Positions 1 to 60,710 of a DNA stretch of 64,000 nt are shown one piece after another. The DNA is from Solirubrobacterales bacterium. Its GTDB lineage: Bacteria > Actinomycetota > Thermoleophilia > Solirubrobacterales > 70-9. The translations under genes were made by a program, and so were the position numbers. Under the pieces are notes generated by a model, which had not been told where the DNA came from, did no database searches, and saw only the letters and a program-made list of their open reading frames with translations. The stretch is from assembly GCA_035318745.1 (NCBI GenBank), contig DATHEA010000005.1:88090-152089 (forward strand), read 5' to 3'. Position 1 is the stretch's first letter, and every line of letters begins with the position of its first letter.

Positions 1-3
1 AAG

Positions 4-110
4 GCAAGAACCAGGCGTCCCCTCTGCCGGAACCCGCCGACGAACCTGGTGCGAGGGCTCGTTTCCCAGCGGGCTCACAAGTTCCTGCAGAGGGGACGCC
101 TGGTTCTTGC
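4..110 (+). repeat. Family-1 structured palindromic intergenic element, copy A
   Basis: 4-27 gcaagaaccaggcgtcccctctgc is the exact reverse complement of 87-110. The arms enclose the core cggaacccgc...gcgggctcacaagttcc, shared with copies at 1321, 21999, 22963, 30884 and 31441. Confidence 0.85.
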
Positions 111-125
111 GCTAGATTTCGCTCC

Positions 126-1306: not shown

Positions 1307-1320
1307 GGCGTCATCGTAGA

Positions 1321-1423
1321 AAGGCCACCGGGTGTCCCCCCGGCGGAACCCGCGTCGAATCGCTCGCGAGGGCGCAGATCCCGCCGGCTCACAAGTTCCG
1401 GCGGGGGGACACCCGGTGGCCTT
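1321..1423 (+). repeat. Family-1 structured palindromic intergenic element, copy B
   Basis: aaggccaccgggtgtcccccc (1321-1341) is the exact reverse complement of 1403-1423. Core is ggaacccgcg...gccggctcacaagttcc. Confidence 0.85.
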
Positions 1424-1458
1424 CCCGGGAGCACCTGCGCTCCTCCGCTAGCTGACGA

Positions 1459-6224: not shown

Positions 6225-6253
6225 CGGCGTCTACGTTACGAGAGTCGGCTTGG

Positions 6254-6366
6254 AGCCCACCCCGGCAGAGCTTCCACTTAACTTTTTCGGTGTGTCGCTT
6301 GCGTGCTGGCGCCCGGAGGCCTCGACGAAAAAGTACAAGACGTTTCAGCCCTACCGGGGTGGGCTC
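6254..6366 (+). repeat. Family-2 structured palindromic intergenic element, copy 1
   Basis: gagcccaccccgg (6254-6266) is the exact reverse complement of 6354-6366. The inner A/T-rich stem actttttcg/cgaaaaagt and the core ttccacttaactttttcggtg...cgacgaaaaagtacaagacgtt recur, inverted, at 27894-28009. Confidence 0.8.
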
Positions 6367-8636: not shown

Positions 8637-8642
8637 GCTCGA

Positions 8643-9000
8643 TGGAGGCGGCCGGAATCGAACCGGCGTGTCTGGCCGTAGCGCGAAGGCTTCTACAGGT
8701 TTAGCCGGCGCTTGATTCTCGTCTCCCGGGGTCCGCGCCGGCGGGCACTGCGGGAGATAAAGCCCTCTGAAATGTCCCCTGGCGGACGGGGCGATCCGCC
8801 CGGGTAAGCCCGCAATTGAAGCCGGTGCCCCCCTCCGCGGGCGGGAGAGGGCCGACTCTCACTCACTTAGATCTAACTAAGCAGCGAGGGCGAACTCATG
8901 GTCCGCACGTATTGGTTGGTGCCGGGGTTTAACGAGGCCTCCGGCAACCTCGACCTGCAACCGTTCGCACGGATCGACCAGATCGAAGCCTGTCGCCCCC
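8643..9000 (-). ncRNA. ssrA: tmRNA (transfer-messenger RNA)
   Basis: The minus strand starts GGGGGCGACAGGCTTCGATCTGGTCGATCCGTGCGAACGG and ends GCCGGTTCGATTCCGGCCGCCTCCA (T-arm plus acceptor). The acceptor stem 5-prime GGGGGCG / 3-prime CGCCTCC contains the G3:U alanine identity pair. Internal tag frame GCG GAC CAT GAG TTC GCC CTC GCT GCT TAG (8906-8877) encodes ADHEFALAA*. The 3-prime CCA is not genome-encoded. Confidence 0.93.
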
Positions 9001-10430: not shown

Positions 10431-10572
10431 GGGCGACCGCGGTGGTCCTCCGGGGGTGCCTCGCGAAGCGGCGCACCGGCGAGTGATTCTTGCCGCGAAG
10501 CGGCTCCAACATAGTGAGCGGAGCGTCAGCGAAGCGAACCCCGGCACCCACGGGGGACCACCGCGGTCGCCC
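10431..10572 (+). repeat. Family-3 structured palindromic intergenic element, copy 1
   Basis: 30-nt arms 10431-10460 and 10543-10572 are complementary at 27 of 30 positions. The interior has three exact GCGAAGC heptamers (10463-69, 10495-501, 10529-35) and the motif gtgatt-hairpin-tccaacatagt, shared with 40781-40932. Confidence 0.8.
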
Positions 10573-21993: not shown

Positions 21994-21998
21994 AGCAG

Positions 21999-22100
21999 GG
22001 AGGACGGGTGCCCCTCCGCCGGAACCCGCCGCCGACAGCTTGCCCAGGGCGCCCTCGCCTTGCGGGCTCACAAGTTCCGTCGGAGGGGCACCCGTCCTCC
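21999..22100 (+). repeat. Family-1 structured palindromic intergenic element, copy C
   Basis: ggaggacgggtgcccctccg (21999-22018) is the exact reverse complement of 22081-22100. Core is ggaacccgcc...gcgggctcacaagttcc. It fills the gap between the convergent fpg stop (21991-93) and nadC stop (22101-03). Confidence 0.88.
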
Positions 22101-22943
22101 TCATGCCGGTTCGATCAGCATGCTGAAGTCAAGCGTCGGCGCGGAGTGCGTCAGCGCCCCAACCGAGATGTAGTCGACGCCCGTTTCTGCAATCCCACGC
22201 ACGGTCTCCAAGCTGACGCCGCCGGAGGCCTCCAGCGGCGGGCCGTTGGCGCTGCGCTCGGCATCGCGCAGGGCGACCGCTTCGCGCAGCTCCTCCAGGG
22301 TCATGTTGTCGAGCAGCAGTCGGTCGGCGCCGGTGCCCAACGCGTAGCCAGACTCCAGGACGGTGCGGCACTCGACCTCGACCGGCAGATCCGGACGCGC
22401 GTTGCGCGCGGCGTAGACGGCCTTGGCGAGACTTCCCGCCAGGGCGATGTGGTTCTCCTTGATCAGGATCGCGTCGTAGAGCCCCATGCGGTGGTTCTTG
22501 CCCCCACCGGCGGCCACCGCCGCCTTCTCCAGAGCCCGCAGCCCCGGGGTCGTCTTGCGCGTGTCGAGGATGACGGCACCGGTTCCGGCGACCGCCTCGA
22601 CGTAACGCGCCGTAAGGGTGGCGATGCCAGAGAGGTGGCCGAGGAAGTTGAGTGCAGTCCGCTCGGCGGCAAGCAAGCCTACGGCTGGACCGCTGGCGAG
22701 CAACACCTCAGCTGGCACGTCCTCACGCCACTGCCCCTCGACAACCAGATTGTCGATGTCCTCCACCCCGCACTGGCGCATCGTCTCGGCAACCACAGCA
22801 AGACCGAAGACAACGCCAGTCTCCTTCTGCACGATCCGTGCTCTACCACGAGCACCCTGAGGGACAGTCGCCTCCGAAGTCACATCCCCAGCTCCAAGAT
22901 CCTCGGCGAGCGTGCGGGCAACCGTCTCCTCTAGATCAACCAT
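22101..22943 (-). CDS. nadC: nicotinate-nucleotide pyrophosphorylase (carboxylating)
   Basis: From the ATG at 22943, MVDLEETVARTLAEDLGAGDVTSEA...ERTALNFLGHLSGIAT...DTRKTTPGLR...LDNM...SGG is canonical NadC. The track ORF start at 23045 reads through repeat copy D. Confidence 0.9.
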   Translation of the reverse strand: MVDLEETVARTLAEDLGAGDVTSEATVPQGARGRARIVQKETGVVFGLAVVAETMRQCGVEDIDNLVVEGQWREDVPAEVLLASGPAVGLLAAERTALNFLGHLSGIATLTARYVEAVAGTGAVILDTRKTTPGLRALEKAAVAAGGGKNHRMGLYDAILIKENHIALAGSLAKAVYAARNARPDLPVEVECRTVLESGYALGTGADRLLLDNMTLEELREAVALRDAERSANGPPLEASGGVSLETVRGIAETGVDYISVGALTHSAPTLDFSMLIEPA

Positions 22944-22962
22944 CCCCGGGACCCTAGATCGG

Positions 22963-23056
22963 GAGAGAGACGGGTGCCCCTCCGACGGAACTTGTGCCCG
23001 CACCCTGGGGCAAGCTGCCAGCGGCGGGTTCCGACGGAGGGGCACCCGTCTCTCTC
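22963..23056 (-). repeat. Family-1 structured palindromic intergenic element, copy D (inverted relative to the others)
   Basis: gagagagacgggtgcccctccg (22963-22984) is the exact reverse complement of 23035-23056. The core reads ggaacttgtgcccgc...gcggcgggttcc, which is the reverse complement of the family core. Confidence 0.88.
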
Positions 23057-23090
23057 ACACCCAGCCCCTCCGAAGCGTTTAATCCCACAG

Positions 23091-27893: not shown

Positions 27894-28009
27894 AGAGCCC
27901 GCCGCGGTAGGGATGGAACGTCTTGTACTTTTTCGTCGACGCCTGCGGGCGCCCGCCCACCCGCGCCCCACCGAAAAAGTTAAGTGGAATCCCTACCGCG
28001 GCGGGCTCT
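27894..28009 (-). repeat. Family-2 structured palindromic intergenic element, copy 2 (inverted relative to copy 1)
   Basis: agagcccgccgcggtaggga (27894-27913) is the exact reverse complement of 27990-28009. The reverse complement contains ttccacttaactttttcggtg...cgacgaaaaagtacaagacgtt, as in 6254-6366. Confidence 0.82.
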
Positions 28010-28017
28010 GAAACGCC

Positions 28018-30861
28018 TCAAGCCCCGTGGCACTTCTTGAACTTTTTGCCGCTGCCGCACCAGCAGGGATCGTTGCGACCGATTTCTTTCTCTCGCTCGT
28101 CCTTGACCACGGTCTCGATCACCTCGGGCGCCGGGGCGCCGTTGCCACCGCCGTTTGGCCGCGCGGTCCCTTCGGTGACACTGACACCCGCCGCCACCTC
28201 CTGCAGGGCCGACGGTTGGGCGTCCGGAGTGCCGCCGGAGTAGTCGAGCGCCGTCGGCCCGCCGCCGTTGCCGGCAAATGAGCCTTCTTGCACCTGTGAG
28301 GGGTCGATTTCGATCTGCGCGTTGAAGACGAGTTTGCTGAATTCCTCCCAGATCGAGTGCATCAGCTCCTCGAACATGCCAAAGCCTTCGTTTTTGTAGG
28401 CGACGAGGGGGTCGATCTGAGCGAAGCCGCGCAGGTGGATGCCCTCGCGCAGGTAGTCCATGTCGTAGAGGTGCTCACGCCAGCGGCTGTCGATCACCTG
28501 CAGCAGGATCGAGCGCTCCAGATAGCGCATCAGCTCCTCGCCGAGTGCCTGCTCGCGGTCGTCGTAGGCGCTCATCGAGTCGTCGTCGAGGGCGTCCTTG
28601 AGCTTTTCGCGGTCGACCGTCTCCGGAGACAACGAGCCGACCTCGATCCCGACCGGCCAGATCTGGCGCAGCTGCGCCTCCAGCCCGGCCAGGTCCCAGT
28701 CTTCGAGGTCGTCGCCGGGGGTGTACTCGTCGACCAGGCGCTCGATCACGCCCTCCAGCTCGTCGCGGGCGATGTCGGACATGTCTCGCCCCTCGAGGAT
28801 CTCGCGGCGATATTTGTAGACGACGCGGCGCTGCTCGTTCATCACATCGTCGTACTCGAGCACGCGTTTGCGGATCAGGAAGTTCTGTTCCTCGACCTTC
28901 TTCTGCGCCCCCTCGACCGTTTTGCTCAGCATTTTGGCCTCGAGCGGCATCTCCCCACCCTCCTCGTCGACGGGGCCGAGGCGGTCGAGAATTTTGTAGA
29001 TGCGGTCGCCGGCGAAGAGGCGGATCACGTCGTCTTCGGCGGAGAGGAAGAAGCGCGTCTCGCCGGGATCACCCTGACGGCCGGAGCGGCCGCGCAGCTG
29101 GTTGTCGATGCGGCGTGATTCGTGGCGCTCGGTGCCGCAGATATAGAGGCCACCGAGCTCGCGCACTTCCTCGGCCTCCCCCTTGCACTGCGGCTCCATC
29201 TCGACGATCTTTGCGGCCAGCGCCTCCTCGTAGCCCTCGTCGCCGTGACCGAGCCCCTGCTTTTTCAGCTCTTTCATCGCGAGGTGCTCGGGGTCGCCGC
29301 CGAGCTTGATGTCGACGCCGCGGCCGGCCATATTGGTGGCGATCATCACCGCACCCTTGCGCCCGGCTTCGGCGATCCGCTCGCCCTCTTTTTCCGCGTG
29401 CTCGGGCTTCGCATTGAGCACGGCGTGCTCGACTCCGTGCCGTTTCAGCTCGCCGGAGATCATCTCCGAGACCTCGACCGAGACGGTGCCGACGAGGATC
29501 GGCTGACCTTCCTCGTGGCGGGCGAAGATCTCCTCGAGCACGGCTTTCCACTTGCCGTCCTTGGTTTTGAAGATCTGGTCGTTGTGATCGGCCCGGACCA
29601 TCGGCCGGTTGGTCGGGATCTCGACCACGGGCACTTTGTAGATTTTCATGAACTCGGTCGCCTCGGTCAGCGCCGTGCCGGTCATTCCCCCGAGCTTGTC
29701 GTAGAGGCGGAAGTAGTTCTGCAGGGTGATCGTTGCCAGGGTCTGGTTCTCCTCGCCGATCGCCACCCCCTCCTTCGCCTCGACCGCCTGGTGCAGGCCC
29801 TCCGACCAGCGCCGGCCCTCGAGGATGCGGCCGGTGAACTCGTCGATGATCATCACCTGGCCGTCGACCACGGCGTAGTCCTTGTCCTTCTTGTAGAGCG
29901 ACTCGGCCTTGAGCGCCTGGCCGAGGTGGTTGACGAGGGTGCCGTGCTCGCTCAGGTAGAGGTTGTCGACGTCGAGGAACTCCTCGGCGCGTTTGACCCC
30001 GCGCTCGGTCGGCGAAACGGTCTTGTGCTTCTCGTCGTATTCGTAGTCGTAGTCGGCCTCGGAGGTGTCTTTCGATTCGCCCAGGGATTTCAGCCGGTCC
30101 TTGGCCTGGACGCCCTCCATCTGACGCGCGAGGCGAGCGAACTGGTAGTAGATCTGCGCCGCCTGTTCGGGGGCGCCGGAGATGATCAGCGGCGTCCGCG
30201 CCTCGTCGATCAGGATGTTGTCGACCTCGTCCACGATCGCGAAGTGGTGGCCGCGCTGAACGCATTCCTCCAGCGATCCGGACATGTTGTCGCGCAGGTA
30301 GTCGAAGCCAAACTCGGAATTGGTGCCGTAGGTCACGTCGCAGCCGTATTTGACCTGCCGTGCGGCGTGATCGTCGGAGTCCTGGATCGCAGCAACGGTG
30401 ACGCCGAGCGCCTCGTAGACCGGCGTCATCCATTCGGCATCGCGGCGTGCGAGATAGTCGTTGACGGTGACGAGGTGGACGCTGTCGCCCGCCAGCGTGT
30501 TGAGGAAGACCGCCAGGGTCGCCGTCAGCGTCTTGCCCTCGCCGGTCTTCATCTCGGCGATCGCACCCTCGTGGAGCGCCATGCCGCCGATCAGCTGTAC
30601 GTCAAAGTGGCGCTGGCCGATGCTGCGCCGCGCCGCCTCACGGGTCAGCGCAAAGGCCTCCGGCAGGAGGTCGTCCAGGGTCTCGCCGCCCCGGGCGCGC
30701 TCACGCAGAGAGTCGGCCTCGGCGCGCAGCTCCTCGTCGCTGAGCAGCTCCATCTCGGGCTCGATCGCGTTGATTCTCTGCGCACGCTTCTCGTACGCCT
30801 TGAATTTGCGACCCTCTCCCACGCGGAGCGCCCGCGTGACCATGTCCCGTGCATTGGCCAT
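28018..30861 (-). CDS. secA: preprotein translocase ATPase SecA
   Basis: 947 aa. Walker A MKTGEGKTL, DEAD-like DEVDNILIDEARTPLIISG and C-terminal zinc-binding CWCGSGKKFKKCHG. Confidence 0.95.
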   Translation of the reverse strand: MANARDMVTRALRVGEGRKFKAYEKRAQRINAIEPEMELLSDEELRAEADSLRERARGGETLDDLLPEAFALTREAARRSIGQRHFDVQLIGGMALHEGAIAEMKTGEGKTLTATLAVFLNTLAGDSVHLVTVNDYLARRDAEWMTPVYEALGVTVAAIQDSDDHAARQVKYGCDVTYGTNSEFGFDYLRDNMSGSLEECVQRGHHFAIVDEVDNILIDEARTPLIISGAPEQAAQIYYQFARLARQMEGVQAKDRLKSLGESKDTSEADYDYEYDEKHKTVSPTERGVKRAEEFLDVDNLYLSEHGTLVNHLGQALKAESLYKKDKDYAVVDGQVMIIDEFTGRILEGRRWSEGLHQAVEAKEGVAIGEENQTLATITLQNYFRLYDKLGGMTGTALTEATEFMKIYKVPVVEIPTNRPMVRADHNDQIFKTKDGKWKAVLEEIFARHEEGQPILVGTVSVEVSEMISGELKRHGVEHAVLNAKPEHAEKEGERIAEAGRKGAVMIATNMAGRGVDIKLGGDPEHLAMKELKKQGLGHGDEGYEEALAAKIVEMEPQCKGEAEEVRELGGLYICGTERHESRRIDNQLRGRSGRQGDPGETRFFLSAEDDVIRLFAGDRIYKILDRLGPVDEEGGEMPLEAKMLSKTVEGAQKKVEEQNFLIRKRVLEYDDVMNEQRRVVYKYRREILEGRDMSDIARDELEGVIERLVDEYTPGDDLEDWDLAGLEAQLRQIWPVGIEVGSLSPETVDREKLKDALDDDSMSAYDDREQALGEELMRYLERSILLQVIDSRWREHLYDMDYLREGIHLRGFAQIDPLVAYKNEGFGMFEELMHSIWEEFSKLVFNAQIEIDPSQVQEGSFAGNGGGPTALDYSGGTPDAQPSALQEVAAGVSVTEGTARPNGGGNGAPAPEVIETVVKDEREKEIGRNDPCWCGSGKKFKKCHGA

Positions 30862-30883
30862 CTCTCAAGGGTAGCTATCTCGG

Positions 30884-30992
30884 ACGAAGGGGACCGGGTG
30901 TCCCCTCGACGGAACCCGCGTCGGATTCCGGGCGGAGGCGCAGTTCCCAGCGGCTCACAAGTTCCTCTGAGGGGACACCCGGTCCCCTTCGT
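30884..30992 (+). repeat. Family-1 structured palindromic intergenic element, copy E
   Basis: acgaaggggaccgggtgtcccctc (30884-30907) is the exact reverse complement of 30969-30992. Core is cggaacccgcgtcggattccgggcggaggcgcagttcccagcggctcacaagttcc. Confidence 0.9.
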
Positions 30993-31005
30993 AGGTTGAG
31001 CTAGC

Positions 31006-31359
31006 TCAAGCTGAGGCGGTGCGACCGCGCACCTGATTCACGAGCTTGCGCGTCCGGCTCCGCTTGCGTCGCTTCTCGCGGTGCTTCTTGACCTGGCGGC
31101 GGATGTCCTCGGCAAGTTCGTGGACGCTGTGGGCCATCTCCGGCGCGCACTCCTTCGCGTGCAGCGTCACGCCCTTGAGCCTCAGCGTGGCCTCGGCGAC
31201 CTGGCTATCCGCAATCGCCGGATTCTTCTCTTCCCAGACGATCACTTCGAGCATCGCCAGCTCAGAGACCTGCCTGCCGACGCGACGAAATCGCTTGAAG
31301 ATGTGTTCCCGCAGCTCGTCATCGATCTCGACGTTGCGCCCACGCACCTCAATCCGCAT
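31006..31359 (-). CDS. hpf: ribosome hibernation/S30EA family protein (short HPF/RaiA type with basic tail)
   Basis: MRIEVRGRNVEIDDELREHIFKRFRRV...ATLRLKGVTLHAKE...VHELAEDIRRQVKKHREKRR fits the sigma-54 modulation/S30EA family. 117 aa, with no long-HPF C-terminal domain. Confidence 0.8.
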   Translation of the reverse strand: MRIEVRGRNVEIDDELREHIFKRFRRVGRQVSELAMLEVIVWEEKNPAIADSQVAEATLRLKGVTLHAKECAPEMAHSVHELAEDIRRQVKKHREKRRKRSRTRKLVNQVRGRTASA

Positions 31360-31440
31360 TTTGGCCTCCTCTGTCTGGGTCTGCCTCGATCCTACGCCGG
31401 TACCCGGTCCACGACAAGAGGAACTTCTGCGGATGTTGCG

Positions 31441-31549
31441 GACAGAGAGATCGGGTGTCCCCTCGACGGAACCCGCGTCGGATTCCGGGCGGGGGCGCTA
31501 TTCCCAGCGGCTCACAAGTTCCTCTGAGGGGACACCCGATCTCTCTGTC
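31441..31549 (+). repeat. Family-1 structured palindromic intergenic element, copy F
   Basis: gacagagagatcgggtgtcccctc (31441-31464) is the exact reverse complement of 31526-31549. The interior is nearly identical to copy E. Its last base overlaps the comF stop codon. Confidence 0.9.
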
Positions 31550-32172
31550 TACAGCCGGCGCGTAAAAGTGATTGCCACGACCCGAACGCTTCCAGCTTGG
31601 CGGAGGGCTCTGGCGCACGAGGAGAGAGTGGCGCCTGTGGTTAGAACGTCGTCGATCAGTAGGACGCTGCGAGGGACTTCACCGCGGGCGTGGATCTCAG
31701 GTGGATGGCCGATGCGCTCAGCTCGGCGCTTGCCTACTTGGCGGCCGCCGCCGCGGCGGATGAGACAGGTGCTTAGGGGCAGCTCGGCTCTCTGCGCCAG
31801 GGCTACCGCTATCTCGGCGGCTGGGTCGAAGCCGCGGAGGGCCGAGCGGAGCGGTGCCGTGGGGACGGGGACGATCGTGCCGCTCAGGATCGTGCCAGGG
31901 GCCAGCCACTGGATCCGGTCGGCCATCAGCTCGGCGACGGGAAGTAGGCGGCGAAACTTGAGCGCTGTCACCAGGTCGCGGGCCACGCCCTCGTGAGGGG
32001 CGGAGGACCAAGCGCGATCCAGTCCGGGAGCGCCGCAGCCCTCCAGGGGATCGGCCTTGCCAAGTCGTCGCGAGCAGCGGGTGCAGAGCGTCGCTTCGGG
32101 GCGGCAGGTTCGCCCGCAGGCCGCGCAGAGCGGCGGGACGATGGCGGCAGTGACTGCGTGGAGGAGCTTCAT
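31549..32172 (-). CDS. comF: ComF family phosphoribosyltransferase-domain protein
   Basis: N-terminal Cys cluster CAACGRTCRPEATLCTRC and PRTase motif VLLIDDVLTTGATL. Confidence 0.8.
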   Translation of the reverse strand: MKLLHAVTAAIVPPLCAACGRTCRPEATLCTRCSRRLGKADPLEGCGAPGLDRAWSSAPHEGVARDLVTALKFRRLLPVAELMADRIQWLAPGTILSGTIVPVPTAPLRSALRGFDPAAEIAVALAQRAELPLSTCLIRRGGGRQVGKRRAERIGHPPEIHARGEVPRSVLLIDDVLTTGATLSSCARALRQAGSVRVVAITFTRRL

Positions 32173-40708: not shown

Positions 40709-40780
40709 GGTCCCTTCCCCGAACTTGCACTTACCCGCCTATACGGCGGGAAACTGAAAGTTCGAGCGGCAGAGCGAGGT

Positions 40781-40932
40781 GAGAGGCGACGATGTCCCGA
40801 GGCGGGAATGTGGCCGAAGGCCGCGATATGCAATCTCGTGATTGCGCGGCCGTAGGCCGCGCTCAAACTTAGTCGCAGAGGCCCGCAGGGCCGAGCGATG
40901 TCAATTCCCGCCTCGGGACATCGGCGCCTCTC
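40781..40932 (+). repeat. Family-3 structured palindromic intergenic element, copy 2
   Basis: 29-nt arms 40781-40809 and 40904-40932 are complementary at 28 of 29 positions. The interior has three C-GNA-G triloop hairpins: gtggcc-gaa-ggccgc (40810-24), gcgcggcc-gta-ggccgcgc (40844-62) and ggccc-gca-gggcc (40880-92). The gtgatt / tcaaacttagt motifs are shared with 10431-10572. Confidence 0.82.
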
Positions 40933-40934
40933 AT

Positions 40935-51397: not shown

Positions 51398-51447
51398 GAC
51401 GTGCCGGTGCTGCGAGGTCCATATGGACCTCGCAGCACCGGCACGTC
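51398..51447. repeat. perfect 50-nt palindrome (candidate inter-cistronic hairpin/terminator)
   Basis: gacgtgccggtgctgcgaggtccatatggacctcgcagcaccggcacgtc is its own reverse complement. It lies between the sugar transferase stop (overlapping it by 2 nt) and the asnB start (51379). No U-tract on either side. Confidence 0.9.
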
Positions 51448-52255
51448 AGCCGGGGGCGGCGGGGCCGCGGCCCAGGACCTTGACCACGGTGGCCAGGAGG
51501 ACGCTGATGTAGAGCGGCACGGAGCGGTCGGCGATGTACTCCATGTCGTGGGCGAGCTTGTCGGCCCAGGACTCCTCGCGGGTCATCCGCGTCTGGGCGA
51601 AGCCGGTGACGCCCGGGCGAACCACCAGCCGCTGCCAGTACTGCGGGATCTCGCGGCAGAGCTCGGTGAAGAAGGCCGGGCGGATCGGCCGCGGCCCGAC
51701 CACCGCCATGTCTCCTCGCAGGACGTTCCACAGCTGCGGTACCTCGTCGAGATGGACCTTCCGCAGCACCCGTCCGATGCGCGTCACCTCTTCTTCGGTG
51801 CGCCGGGTGAGCTCCTCCCCCAGGTACGGGCCAAGGCGGTCCTCGGCATCCGGCTTCAGGGTGCGGAACTTGTACATGCGGAAGAGCCGCCCGCCTCTGC
51901 CCACGCGGGCACCGTGGTAGAAGAGCGGCCGGCCCGAGGTGAGCACGATCGCCAGCGCGGTCAGCGCCAGAAGCGGCGCCAGAATCAACAAAAAGGAAAA
52001 TGAAATAAAGATGTCCAGGCCCCTGAGGAGAGAATCTACTGAGCGCCTCTCACCATCGCCGGCGAGCGCGATGAAGTGCTCCAGCTCGGCCTGGACGTCG
52101 GCGGGCAGGGTTGGTGCCGTGTCAGGCAACGTTCGCCTTCTCTGGCTTGCCCTCGCCGCGCCTGGCGGCGTCCTCGACCACTCGACGTGGCTCTGCCACG
52201 CCTTCGGGTCTGCGTCCTTGCCAGGCACGACGATGACTGCGCCAGAACCGGGCAA
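51446..52255 (-). CDS. monotopic phosphoglycosyl (bacterial sugar) transferase
   Basis: LILAPLLALTALAIVLTSGRPLFY...MYKFRTL...DEVPQLWNVLRGDMAVVGPRP matches the Bac_transf domain pattern. The exact start is uncertain. Confidence 0.85.
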   Translation of the reverse strand: MPGSGAVIVVPGKDADPKAWQSHVEWSRTPPGAARASQRRRTLPDTAPTLPADVQAELEHFIALAGDGERRSVDSLLRGLDIFISFSFLLILAPLLALTALAIVLTSGRPLFYHGARVGRGGRLFRMYKFRTLKPDAEDRLGPYLGEELTRRTEEEVTRIGRVLRKVHLDEVPQLWNVLRGDMAVVGPRPIRPAFFTELCREIPQYWQRLVVRPGVTGFAQTRMTREESWADKLAHDMEYIADRSVPLYISVLLATVVKVLGRGPAAPG

Positions 52256-52281
52256 ACGTCACCGGACACGGCACTAGGGAT

Positions 52282-60551: not shown

Positions 60552-60573
60552 AGGCGCCCCTCGCGTGGGTGGC

Positions 60574-60686
60574 GTCGGGTGGGGGTGTCCAAGCGGGGCG
60601 GCGTCCTCTTTTTCGCCCACCGCCCAGCGAGAGACACATGCTCACCTGGCGAAAAACCCAGCCTCGCTTGGACACCCCCACCCGAC
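60574..60686. repeat. long palindromic intergenic element (singleton, Family-2-like architecture)
   Basis: gtcgggtgggggtgtccaagcg (60574-60595) is the exact reverse complement of 60665-60686. The inner stem tttttcgcc/ggcgaaaaa resembles the TTTTTCG/CGAAAAA inner stem of Family 2. Confidence 0.75.
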
Positions 60687-60710
60687 GACAGGACCCGCGC
60701 GCAAAAGCGT

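Follow-up and report, generated by a model that had tools for sequence, protein, structure and literature searches.

What kind of element are the two long, almost identical hairpins that bracket the hpf gene of a Solirubrobacterales bacterium (assembly GCA_035318745.1, contig DATHEA010000005.1)? They lie in a stretch of 64,000 nucleotides (positions 88,090 to 152,089 of the contig; here called the window) and are designated copies E and F, following an earlier note made from the sequence alone, which described six related copies (A to F) and recognized no named repeat or RNA family among them. The comparisons reported here place E and F in a lineage-specific, apparently undescribed family of structured intergenic hairpin repeats, whose stem changes freely in sequence and yet stays paired. 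The element is thus one under structural constraint, as opposed to the usual transposon remnant in decay.

The positions and anatomy that the note gave for E and F were correct. In the following, the f strand is the wobble-tolerant strand of an element and the st strand is the opposite one; for copies A, B, C, E, and F, the f strand is the minus strand of the window. The features of the two copies are as follows.

30884-30992, minus strand: copy E, whole element; the f strand is the minus strand, which is here the mRNA sense strand; covariance model R1 gives 103.3 bits on minus and 56.7 bits on plus.
30884-30907: arm of E, 24 nt, pairing 24/24 with 30969-30992; its outer 12 nt (ACGAAGGGGACC) are specific to copy E.
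30969-30992: partner arm of E.
30908-30910 (GAC) against 30966-30968 (TCT): imperfect 3x3 linker of E.
30911-30915 and 30961-30965: GGAAC/GTTCC helix of E, enclosing an interior of 45 nt.
30911-30920, minus strand: GGAAC+CCGCG as read on plus, forming the 3' half of helix 2 on minus (CGCGG-GUUCC).
30956-30965, minus strand: CACAA+GTTCC as read on plus, forming the 5' half of helix 2 on minus (GGAAC-UUGUG).
30921-30955, minus strand: apex of E, hypervariable across the family, with a central CCCU-like motif kept (CCUCC in E).
31441-31549, minus strand: copy F, whole element, 103.5 bits with R1 on minus, laid out as in E.
31441-31464: arm of F, with the outer part GACAGAGAGATC, pairing perfectly with 31526-31549 and resembling the F-site arms of other species (GAGAGGATC and GAGGGGATC).
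31526-31549: partner arm of F.

Copies E and F are direct repeats 557 bp apart and share 95% identity over a core of 93 nt, in which the five differences comprise three interior positions and one mirrored C/T-G/A pair. Their outermost 8 to 12 nt are unlike, and the arms within each copy are perfectly complementary, as expected from the claim that every outer-arm difference is mirrored in the partner arm. Fold z-scores against shuffled sequence range from -7.5 to -10 for all six window copies. Over the stretches compared, a 58-kb metagenome contig (L001, ENA ERZ27268094 k141_512397) matches the window at 100% identity, indicating a second, independent assembly of the same organism in which both E and F recur.

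The wider family was collected by scanning one genome per GTDB species for the interior signature CGGAACCCG-N25-50-GCTCACAAGTTCC, an exact 22-nt seed pattern, which matched at least 115 stretches, nearly all in Solirubrobacterales metagenome-assembled genomes (MAGs) from soil. Among the matches listed, 140 distinct copies were defined by the interior motif alone; a few site series predominate in this set. In 120 of the copies, the stem runs without gaps for 20 bp or more; of the other 20, 19 are still intact hairpins, interrupted by a single-base bulge or a tandem mismatch, and one is degraded, which brings the long stem to 139/140. The elements are about 105 nt long. Beyond the GGAAC helix, their stem length is held tightly to 22 to 27 bp, and pairing falls to background right outside the stem. 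Searches of the window against Rfam 15 at gathering and permissive thresholds yielded only the transfer-messenger RNA (tmRNA) above threshold, with E and F drawing only subthreshold matches to generic microRNA-precursor hairpins, which agrees with the absence of a named RNA family in the note. No copy of the family was found in the viral contigs, plasmids, and phages searched, and literature searches retrieved no description of such an element for this lineage. One 2.6-kb contig labeled as a Chloroflexota MAG (L031, JBLMYD010000054.1) carries two copies of the family and is probably a misbinned Solirubrobacterales fragment.

The compensatory change between the arms that the note had inferred from six copies is real and far exceeds that in the slide and shuffle controls. 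Across 106 aligned copies, double-sided changes occur at 21 of the 22 stem pairs, which shows that the whole stem varies, and their total (676) compares with about 165 in shuffled alignments. Paired cells make up 98.3% of the alignment, against 77.5% after shuffling and 43 to 57% with the partners slid; the first value is somewhat flattering because the alignment was prefiltered for good stems (109/140), and the unfiltered pairing per position is 0.86 to 0.99. The inner arm that was described as conserved (gggtgYcccctc) is so within the window, but family-wide this inner part covaries too. Likewise, the purine-rich outer arm does vary, as described, but is not free sequence: across the family, bases other than A and G are very rare at the outer 6 to 8 positions of the 5' arm, making this "variable" arm a polypurine tract of constrained length. 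The conserved part consists of GGAAC...GTTCC and the adjoining asymmetric motif, a sequence that was forced by the search pattern; rare variants outside the pattern covary even in this helix (GAAAC/GTTTC, GCAAC/GTTGC, and GGAAAC/GTTTCC). The linker between the two helices is a lasting imperfection, about 63% paired family-wide. The apex of about 30 nt is hypervariable, falling into 48 clusters among 105 copies with the central CCCU-like motif kept, and no conserved fold was found for it on either strand of these 105 copies. A REP-like palindrome within the arm, in which the purine tract would pair with its own inner C tract in a "clover" fold, was also considered and showed no covariation in any register.

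The pairing constraint acts on the stem of one specific strand. In the orientation used by the note, isolated stem mismatches are 33 C.A/A.C against 5 G.T/T.G (P = 4e-6), and the asymmetry persists as 12:0 after copies are collapsed to sites (P = 5e-4). The excess of C.A and A.C mismatches corresponds to G.U wobbles on the other strand, indicating that the constrained fold is formed by the strand opposite to the one first described. On this f strand, GGAAC-UUGUG pairs with CGCGG-GUUCC through three U.G wobbles, which are invariant in 105 to 106 of the 106 copies, the search pattern having forced that sequence. The CTCACAA segment that was reported as unpaired is therefore unpaired on the plus strand but not on the minus strand, where UUGUG takes part in the wobble helix. 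The covariance model scores the f strand 25 to 48 bits above the other strand, and the f interior is the more stable one in 87 of 105 copies with RNA parameters and in 60 of 105, which is no difference, with DNA parameters. The mismatch asymmetry also persists in copies for which it is the other strand that reads in sense with the adjoining gene (14:3), and this independence from gene direction binds it to the element's own polarity. The note had left open whether the hairpin is selected or copied from arm to arm; the strand-biased wobbles favor selection on one folded strand.

Copies of the family are placed in narrow gaps just after stop codons, where two convergent genes meet or one cistron follows another. 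Both ends of the stem show an enrichment of stop codons, whose distances from it are scattered. With gene calls made by a crude GC3 heuristic, 31 copies were assigned to convergent, 21 to codirectional, and 12 to divergent contexts, and convergent pairs often hold two tail-to-tail copies, each against one stop codon. The genes around E and F are as follows.

28018-30861, minus strand: secA.
31006-31359, minus strand: hpf.
31549-32172, minus strand: comF-like gene.

Copy E lies 13 nt 3' of the hpf stop codon and 22 nt upstream of the secA ATG. The last base of copy F overlaps the stop codon of the comF-like gene (TAG, 31549-31551, minus strand), and F lies 81 nt upstream of the hpf ATG. The secA-hpf-comF context that the note had assigned is confirmed, and in relatives with empty E or F sites these genes are directly adjacent. 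Across the family, the flanking genes are unrelated housekeeping genes with no transposase among them. A regulon-specific cis-regulator was ruled out by the unrelated flanking genes, and brackets of a mobile cassette or transposase gene by the identity of the bracketed genes (nadC, an HD-domain gene, and hpf). GTAG was rejected as a RAYT-type recognition motif, its ratio to TAG being that of the background and its positions scattered; the enrichment of TAG at stem ends is explained by stop codons. Two likenesses noticed by eye were dropped, namely, that of GGAAC to an ECF-sigma -35 box, which had no matching -10 motif, and that of the hairpin to group II intron domain 5, which had no Rfam match.

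Several features of the gaps beside E and F were recorded. The sequence AGCTACCCTTGAG at 30862-30883, directly 5' of the secA ATG, is kept in all relatives, including element-free ones, and the conserved TACCCT 6 nt before this ATG is possibly the -10 box of a leaderless or very short-leader secA mRNA. Between F and hpf, at about 31385-31425 on the minus strand, a promoter-like TTGnCn-17 nt-TAGnAT arrangement was seen by eye and is also present in L012, which lacks F; a consensus promoter scan found nothing, this motif being below its threshold. If both promoter motifs are real, E and F would each lie between an upstream stop codon and the promoter of the next gene. A perfect 14-nt palindrome (TTGAGCTAGCTCAA, 30996-31009) overlaps the hpf stop codon right beside E.

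The sites of the family are conserved across species and yet subject to loss, inversion, replacement, and decay. The 120 analyzed copies fall into 22 site clusters, and about 50 of them are orthologues of the six window copies, which indicates positional conservation across species with flanks 76 to 94% identical. The E site (sites being named after the window copies) holds a copy in the same orientation in five genomes, the window included, and an inverted copy in three, is empty in three, and holds another hairpin family in two. At the F site, four copies have one orientation and four are inverted, one site is empty, and one copy has no 3' arm. The C-site copy is missing in the three closest relatives (L005, L075, and L015), where fpg and nadC abut or overlap. 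At the D site, the orientation is identical in at least 12 species and arm changes are compensated; one genome (L037) has a center deletion, and one other retains an arm remnant only. By this deletion, the L037 copy is reduced to a perfect 24-nt palindrome (GAGAGAGACGGA|TCCGTCTCTCTC) by symmetric loss of the whole core, with the outer arms left, and may represent either a hairpin-processing deletion or an excision footprint.

The same intergenic sites hold other sequences as well. Other hairpin families occupy the E site in L048 and L049 and the D site in L043; the L048 element has a stem like that of the E/F family (GGAGGGTCGGGCGTCCCTCTGCC), but its junction (CGGAGGC/GCCTCCG) and interior differ. 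In L096 and L098, short tandem TTGCAAGTAG-like repeats lie upstream of the D site in an insert of about 150 nt that is missing from other species, and the fpg-nadC junction of L032 (C site) has a 513-nt insert with what is apparently a small minus-strand open reading frame (ORF).

The near identity of E and F is unusual. For E and F (SPECIFICALLY), apex identity is 0.91 in the window against 0.58 to 0.72 in five other genomes that have both copies, with a baseline of about 0.6. Their outer arms resemble those of same-site copies elsewhere, GAGAGGATC and GAGGGGATC at the F site and GGGACC with a CTTCGT flank at the E site. The simplest account would be that both sites were inherited vertically and that their cores were recently homogenized or replaced in this lineage, and the conserved-inner, variable-outer appearance of the pair would then be a local effect of this homogenization. 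Similar sporadic homogenization appears to have affected C and D in L098 and L051. Concerted evolution of neighboring copies as a general rule was withdrawn, these cases being only episodic.

We tentatively favor the reading that E and F are transcribed REP/REPIN-like hairpins that delimit or protect transcript ends, or serve as a double-strand-specific processing site, and that are renewed by copy replacement. On the f strand, the element consists of a stem of 22 to 27 bp, free in sequence, strictly paired, and purine rich in its 5' outer part; an imperfect 3-nt linker; an invariant GGAAC/GUUCC helix extended by U.G, U.G, G-C, and U.G; a conserved AGC; and a hypervariable apex of about 30 nt. 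Once transcribed, such a hairpin would punctuate transcription units, either by forming or protecting 3' ends or by offering a site for double-strand-specific processing. The family would be renewed by copy-and-replace among members via the conserved core, and the nearly identical E and F cores, with their site-specific outer arms untouched, may record one recent event of this kind. Several observations weigh against this reading. G.U accounts for only some 1.3% of the pairs in the stem, a small share for an RNA with a long functional history. The f strand is in many cases antisense to the abutting gene; the apparently strong bias in copies (49:12) shrinks to 12:4 (P = 0.08) once orthologous sites are collapsed and is suggestive only. 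About a fifth of the classifiable copies lie in divergent regions. There is no U tract; the first 8 nt contain four or more T residues in just 4/120 copies on the st strand and in 1/120 on the f strand.

Known transcript-end structures share some of these properties. Intrinsic terminators, including the U-less "I-shaped" actinobacterial ones, and RNase III hairpins are likewise G+C rich, directly behind stop codons, and enriched between convergent genes, and a stem of at least 22 bp suits a substrate of a double-strand-specific nuclease. Unlike terminators, the E/F family has no U tract, a far longer stem, a shared invariant motif, copies in divergent regions, and a polarity of its own. The proposed role would resemble that of REP/BIME and Correia elements. 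Correia elements and the related repeat families named below are cotranscribed with neighboring genes, and they differ from the E/F family in having conserved terminal inverted repeats and, in Correia elements, a TA duplication. In Neisseria, such repeats are RNase III substrates or terminators. To our knowledge, none of these families combines a freely covarying stem with an invariant apical junction. Correia/NEMIS, ERIC, RUP/BOX, and the "stem-loop sequence families" (PMC2267715) have in common with the E/F family that they are interspersed, hairpin-forming intergenic repeats of 100 to 150 nt.

A bolder proposal, which we consider rather unlikely in its entirety, is that the element is a strand-specific module in which the invariant tandem-wobble junction (GGAAC-UUGUGAGC / GCGGG-UUCC) docks a protein particular to the lineage and a duplex of about 25 bp, measured by its length, is read only as structure. 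In the compact genomes of Solirubrobacterales, such a module would mark off transcription units, and it would spread by hairpin-templated or core-homology copying without a classical transposase. If the reading favored above holds, the family would be a clean natural case of a multicopy element that inherits structure rather than stem sequence; its strand polarity is built in, and orthologous site series can be followed by the dozen among uncultured actinobacteria of soil. The family would then make it possible to address whether long hairpins are kept up by selection, templating, or copy replacement, whether REP-like repeats are selfish or domesticated, and how G+C-rich genomes without U-tract terminators delimit their transcripts. 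The covariance model also lets annotators spot elements that adjoin stop codons, which can mislead gene-end calling and assembly.

The alternative that survives best, possible although doubtful, is a REPIN-like nonautonomous mobile element acting as single-stranded DNA, of which one strand folds in replication and is recognized, cut out, and reinserted by a putative strand-specific enzyme (such as an HUH/Y1 transposase or another hairpin-binding recombinase), any effect on RNA being incidental. This would fit a strand constraint that follows the element's polarity and not the neighboring gene, stems that are near-perfectly Watson-Crick paired, and a fixed zone of imperfection like that of protein-recognized hairpins, as well as the presence or absence, inversion, and center-deleted palindromic remnant seen at orthologous sites. 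REPINs, the closest known elements, are likewise long hairpins with common compensatory changes (PMC3116915). The REPIN/REP-RAYT systems of Pseudomonas and Enterobacteria resemble the E/F family in further respects, namely, a single long extragenic hairpin of about 100 nt in tens to hundreds of copies, vertical persistence, and an expected strand-specific biology. However, their conserved and variable parts are arranged in the opposite way: in REPINs, the inverted REP 16- to 25-mers are invariant and the spacer varies, whereas in the E/F family the stem is free and the junction GGAAC-UUGUGAGC...GCGGG-UUCC is invariant. The E/F family also lacks a conserved 5' tetranucleotide of the GTAG type and covariation of a palindrome within the arm. 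The search for a RAYT, IS200/IS605, or other mobilizing enzyme that the note had recommended found none beside the copies or in about 1 Mb of related sequence; in a tblastn search with E. coli RayT against these loci and the window, the best E value was 0.77 and the ORFs were unrelated. With DNA parameters, moreover, the folded strand gains nothing from its three tandem G.T steps, and element orientation is not linked to the coding-strand majority, a proxy for replication direction (42:39). Integron attC sites offer another precedent for imperfect hairpins that flank single genes and are read as a folded single strand, with strand choice by fixed imperfections. Unlike attC sites, the E/F family has no R''/L''/L'/R' boxes (GTTRRRY, by inspection) and no integrase, its copies are not co-oriented in arrays (D being inverted), and the genes they flank belong to the housekeeping core, keep a conserved order, and are adjacent in element-free relatives as well.

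An unlikely explanation is that arm-to-arm templating, by template switching in quasi-palindromes or by repair within the hairpin, keeps the stem perfect without selection. Between same-site copies, divergence of the stem is no slower than that of the flanks (24% where the flanks differ by 8%, leveling off near 33%, against 45% for unrelated copies), and the stems are still paired; both-arm changes exceed one-arm changes by 1,054 to 244, and transversion-type pair flips occur, such as GA/TC to CT/AG in L049, all of which fits templating. Much of the apparently fast divergence can, however, be copy replacement, and templating alone predicts neither a strand-biased wobble spectrum nor the tight stem length and purine composition, nor would it leave the unpaired linker to persist without ever being "corrected."

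It is highly improbable that the outer arms come from the target, the core having entered existing palindromes, such as terminator stems, or having duplicated the target in inverted form. Although E/F and C/D share cores and differ in their outer arms, and the empty E-site allele of L042 holds a small hairpin, the empty C, E, and F sites contain nothing like the outer arms and no equivalent palindrome, which indicates that the arms are not target derived and largely refutes this origin; moreover, outer-arm length and purine composition are constrained across unrelated sites. The least credible reading, a classical miniature inverted-repeat transposable element (MITE) derived from a DDE transposase, with terminal inverted repeats and a target-site duplication, matches the copies in size, inverted-repeat ends, and intergenic location, but it is refuted by the covariation, the termini being the least conserved part and the arms still complementary in old, positionally conserved copies, with no consistent direct target duplication when alleles with and without the element are compared at C, E, and F (the exact boundaries being blurred by divergence), and with neither a parent insertion sequence, a copy split by a long insert, nor an autonomous full-length version in about 1 Mb of related sequence. 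The note had likewise set the element apart from classical MITEs, and this stands because the termini are variable and their pairing is maintained.

The covariance model R1 finds exactly six family members in the window, the same six that had been described by eye, with the correction that copy D is inverted. The four besides E and F are as follows.

2-112, minus strand: copy A; the orthologues in L078, L101, L110, and L113 have the same GCAAGAGCC arm and gctagatt flank.
1318-1426, minus strand: copy B, 15 nt upstream of the start of an HD-domain gene.
21994-22105, minus strand: copy C, wedged between the convergent stop codons of fpg (21993) and nadC (22101).
22960-23059, plus strand: copy D, between the nadC start and an ECF sigma gene, with a reverse-complemented interior, that is, in the opposite orientation; a narrower delimitation places it at 22963-23056.

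In addition, at least seven further near-perfect hairpins of 100 to 160 nt belong to other sequence families (372-469, 6253-6366, 10431-10572, 27894-28009, 40780-40933, 52114-52274, and 60570-60690). These seven lie mostly in short intergenic gaps, and the genome appears to be generally rich in such elements. The hairpin at 40780-40933 has an outer arm (TGAGAGGCGACGATGTCCC) like the arms of the E/F family, but GGGAAT/ATTCCC replaces GGAAC/GTTCC. The tmRNA gene lies at 8640-9000 on the minus strand (Rfam RF00023, 133.6 bits). Between two minus-strand genes, positions 51398-51447 form a loopless, perfect 50-bp palindrome (25+25, 100% complementary), which may be a center-deleted hairpin element like the D-site remnant of L037.
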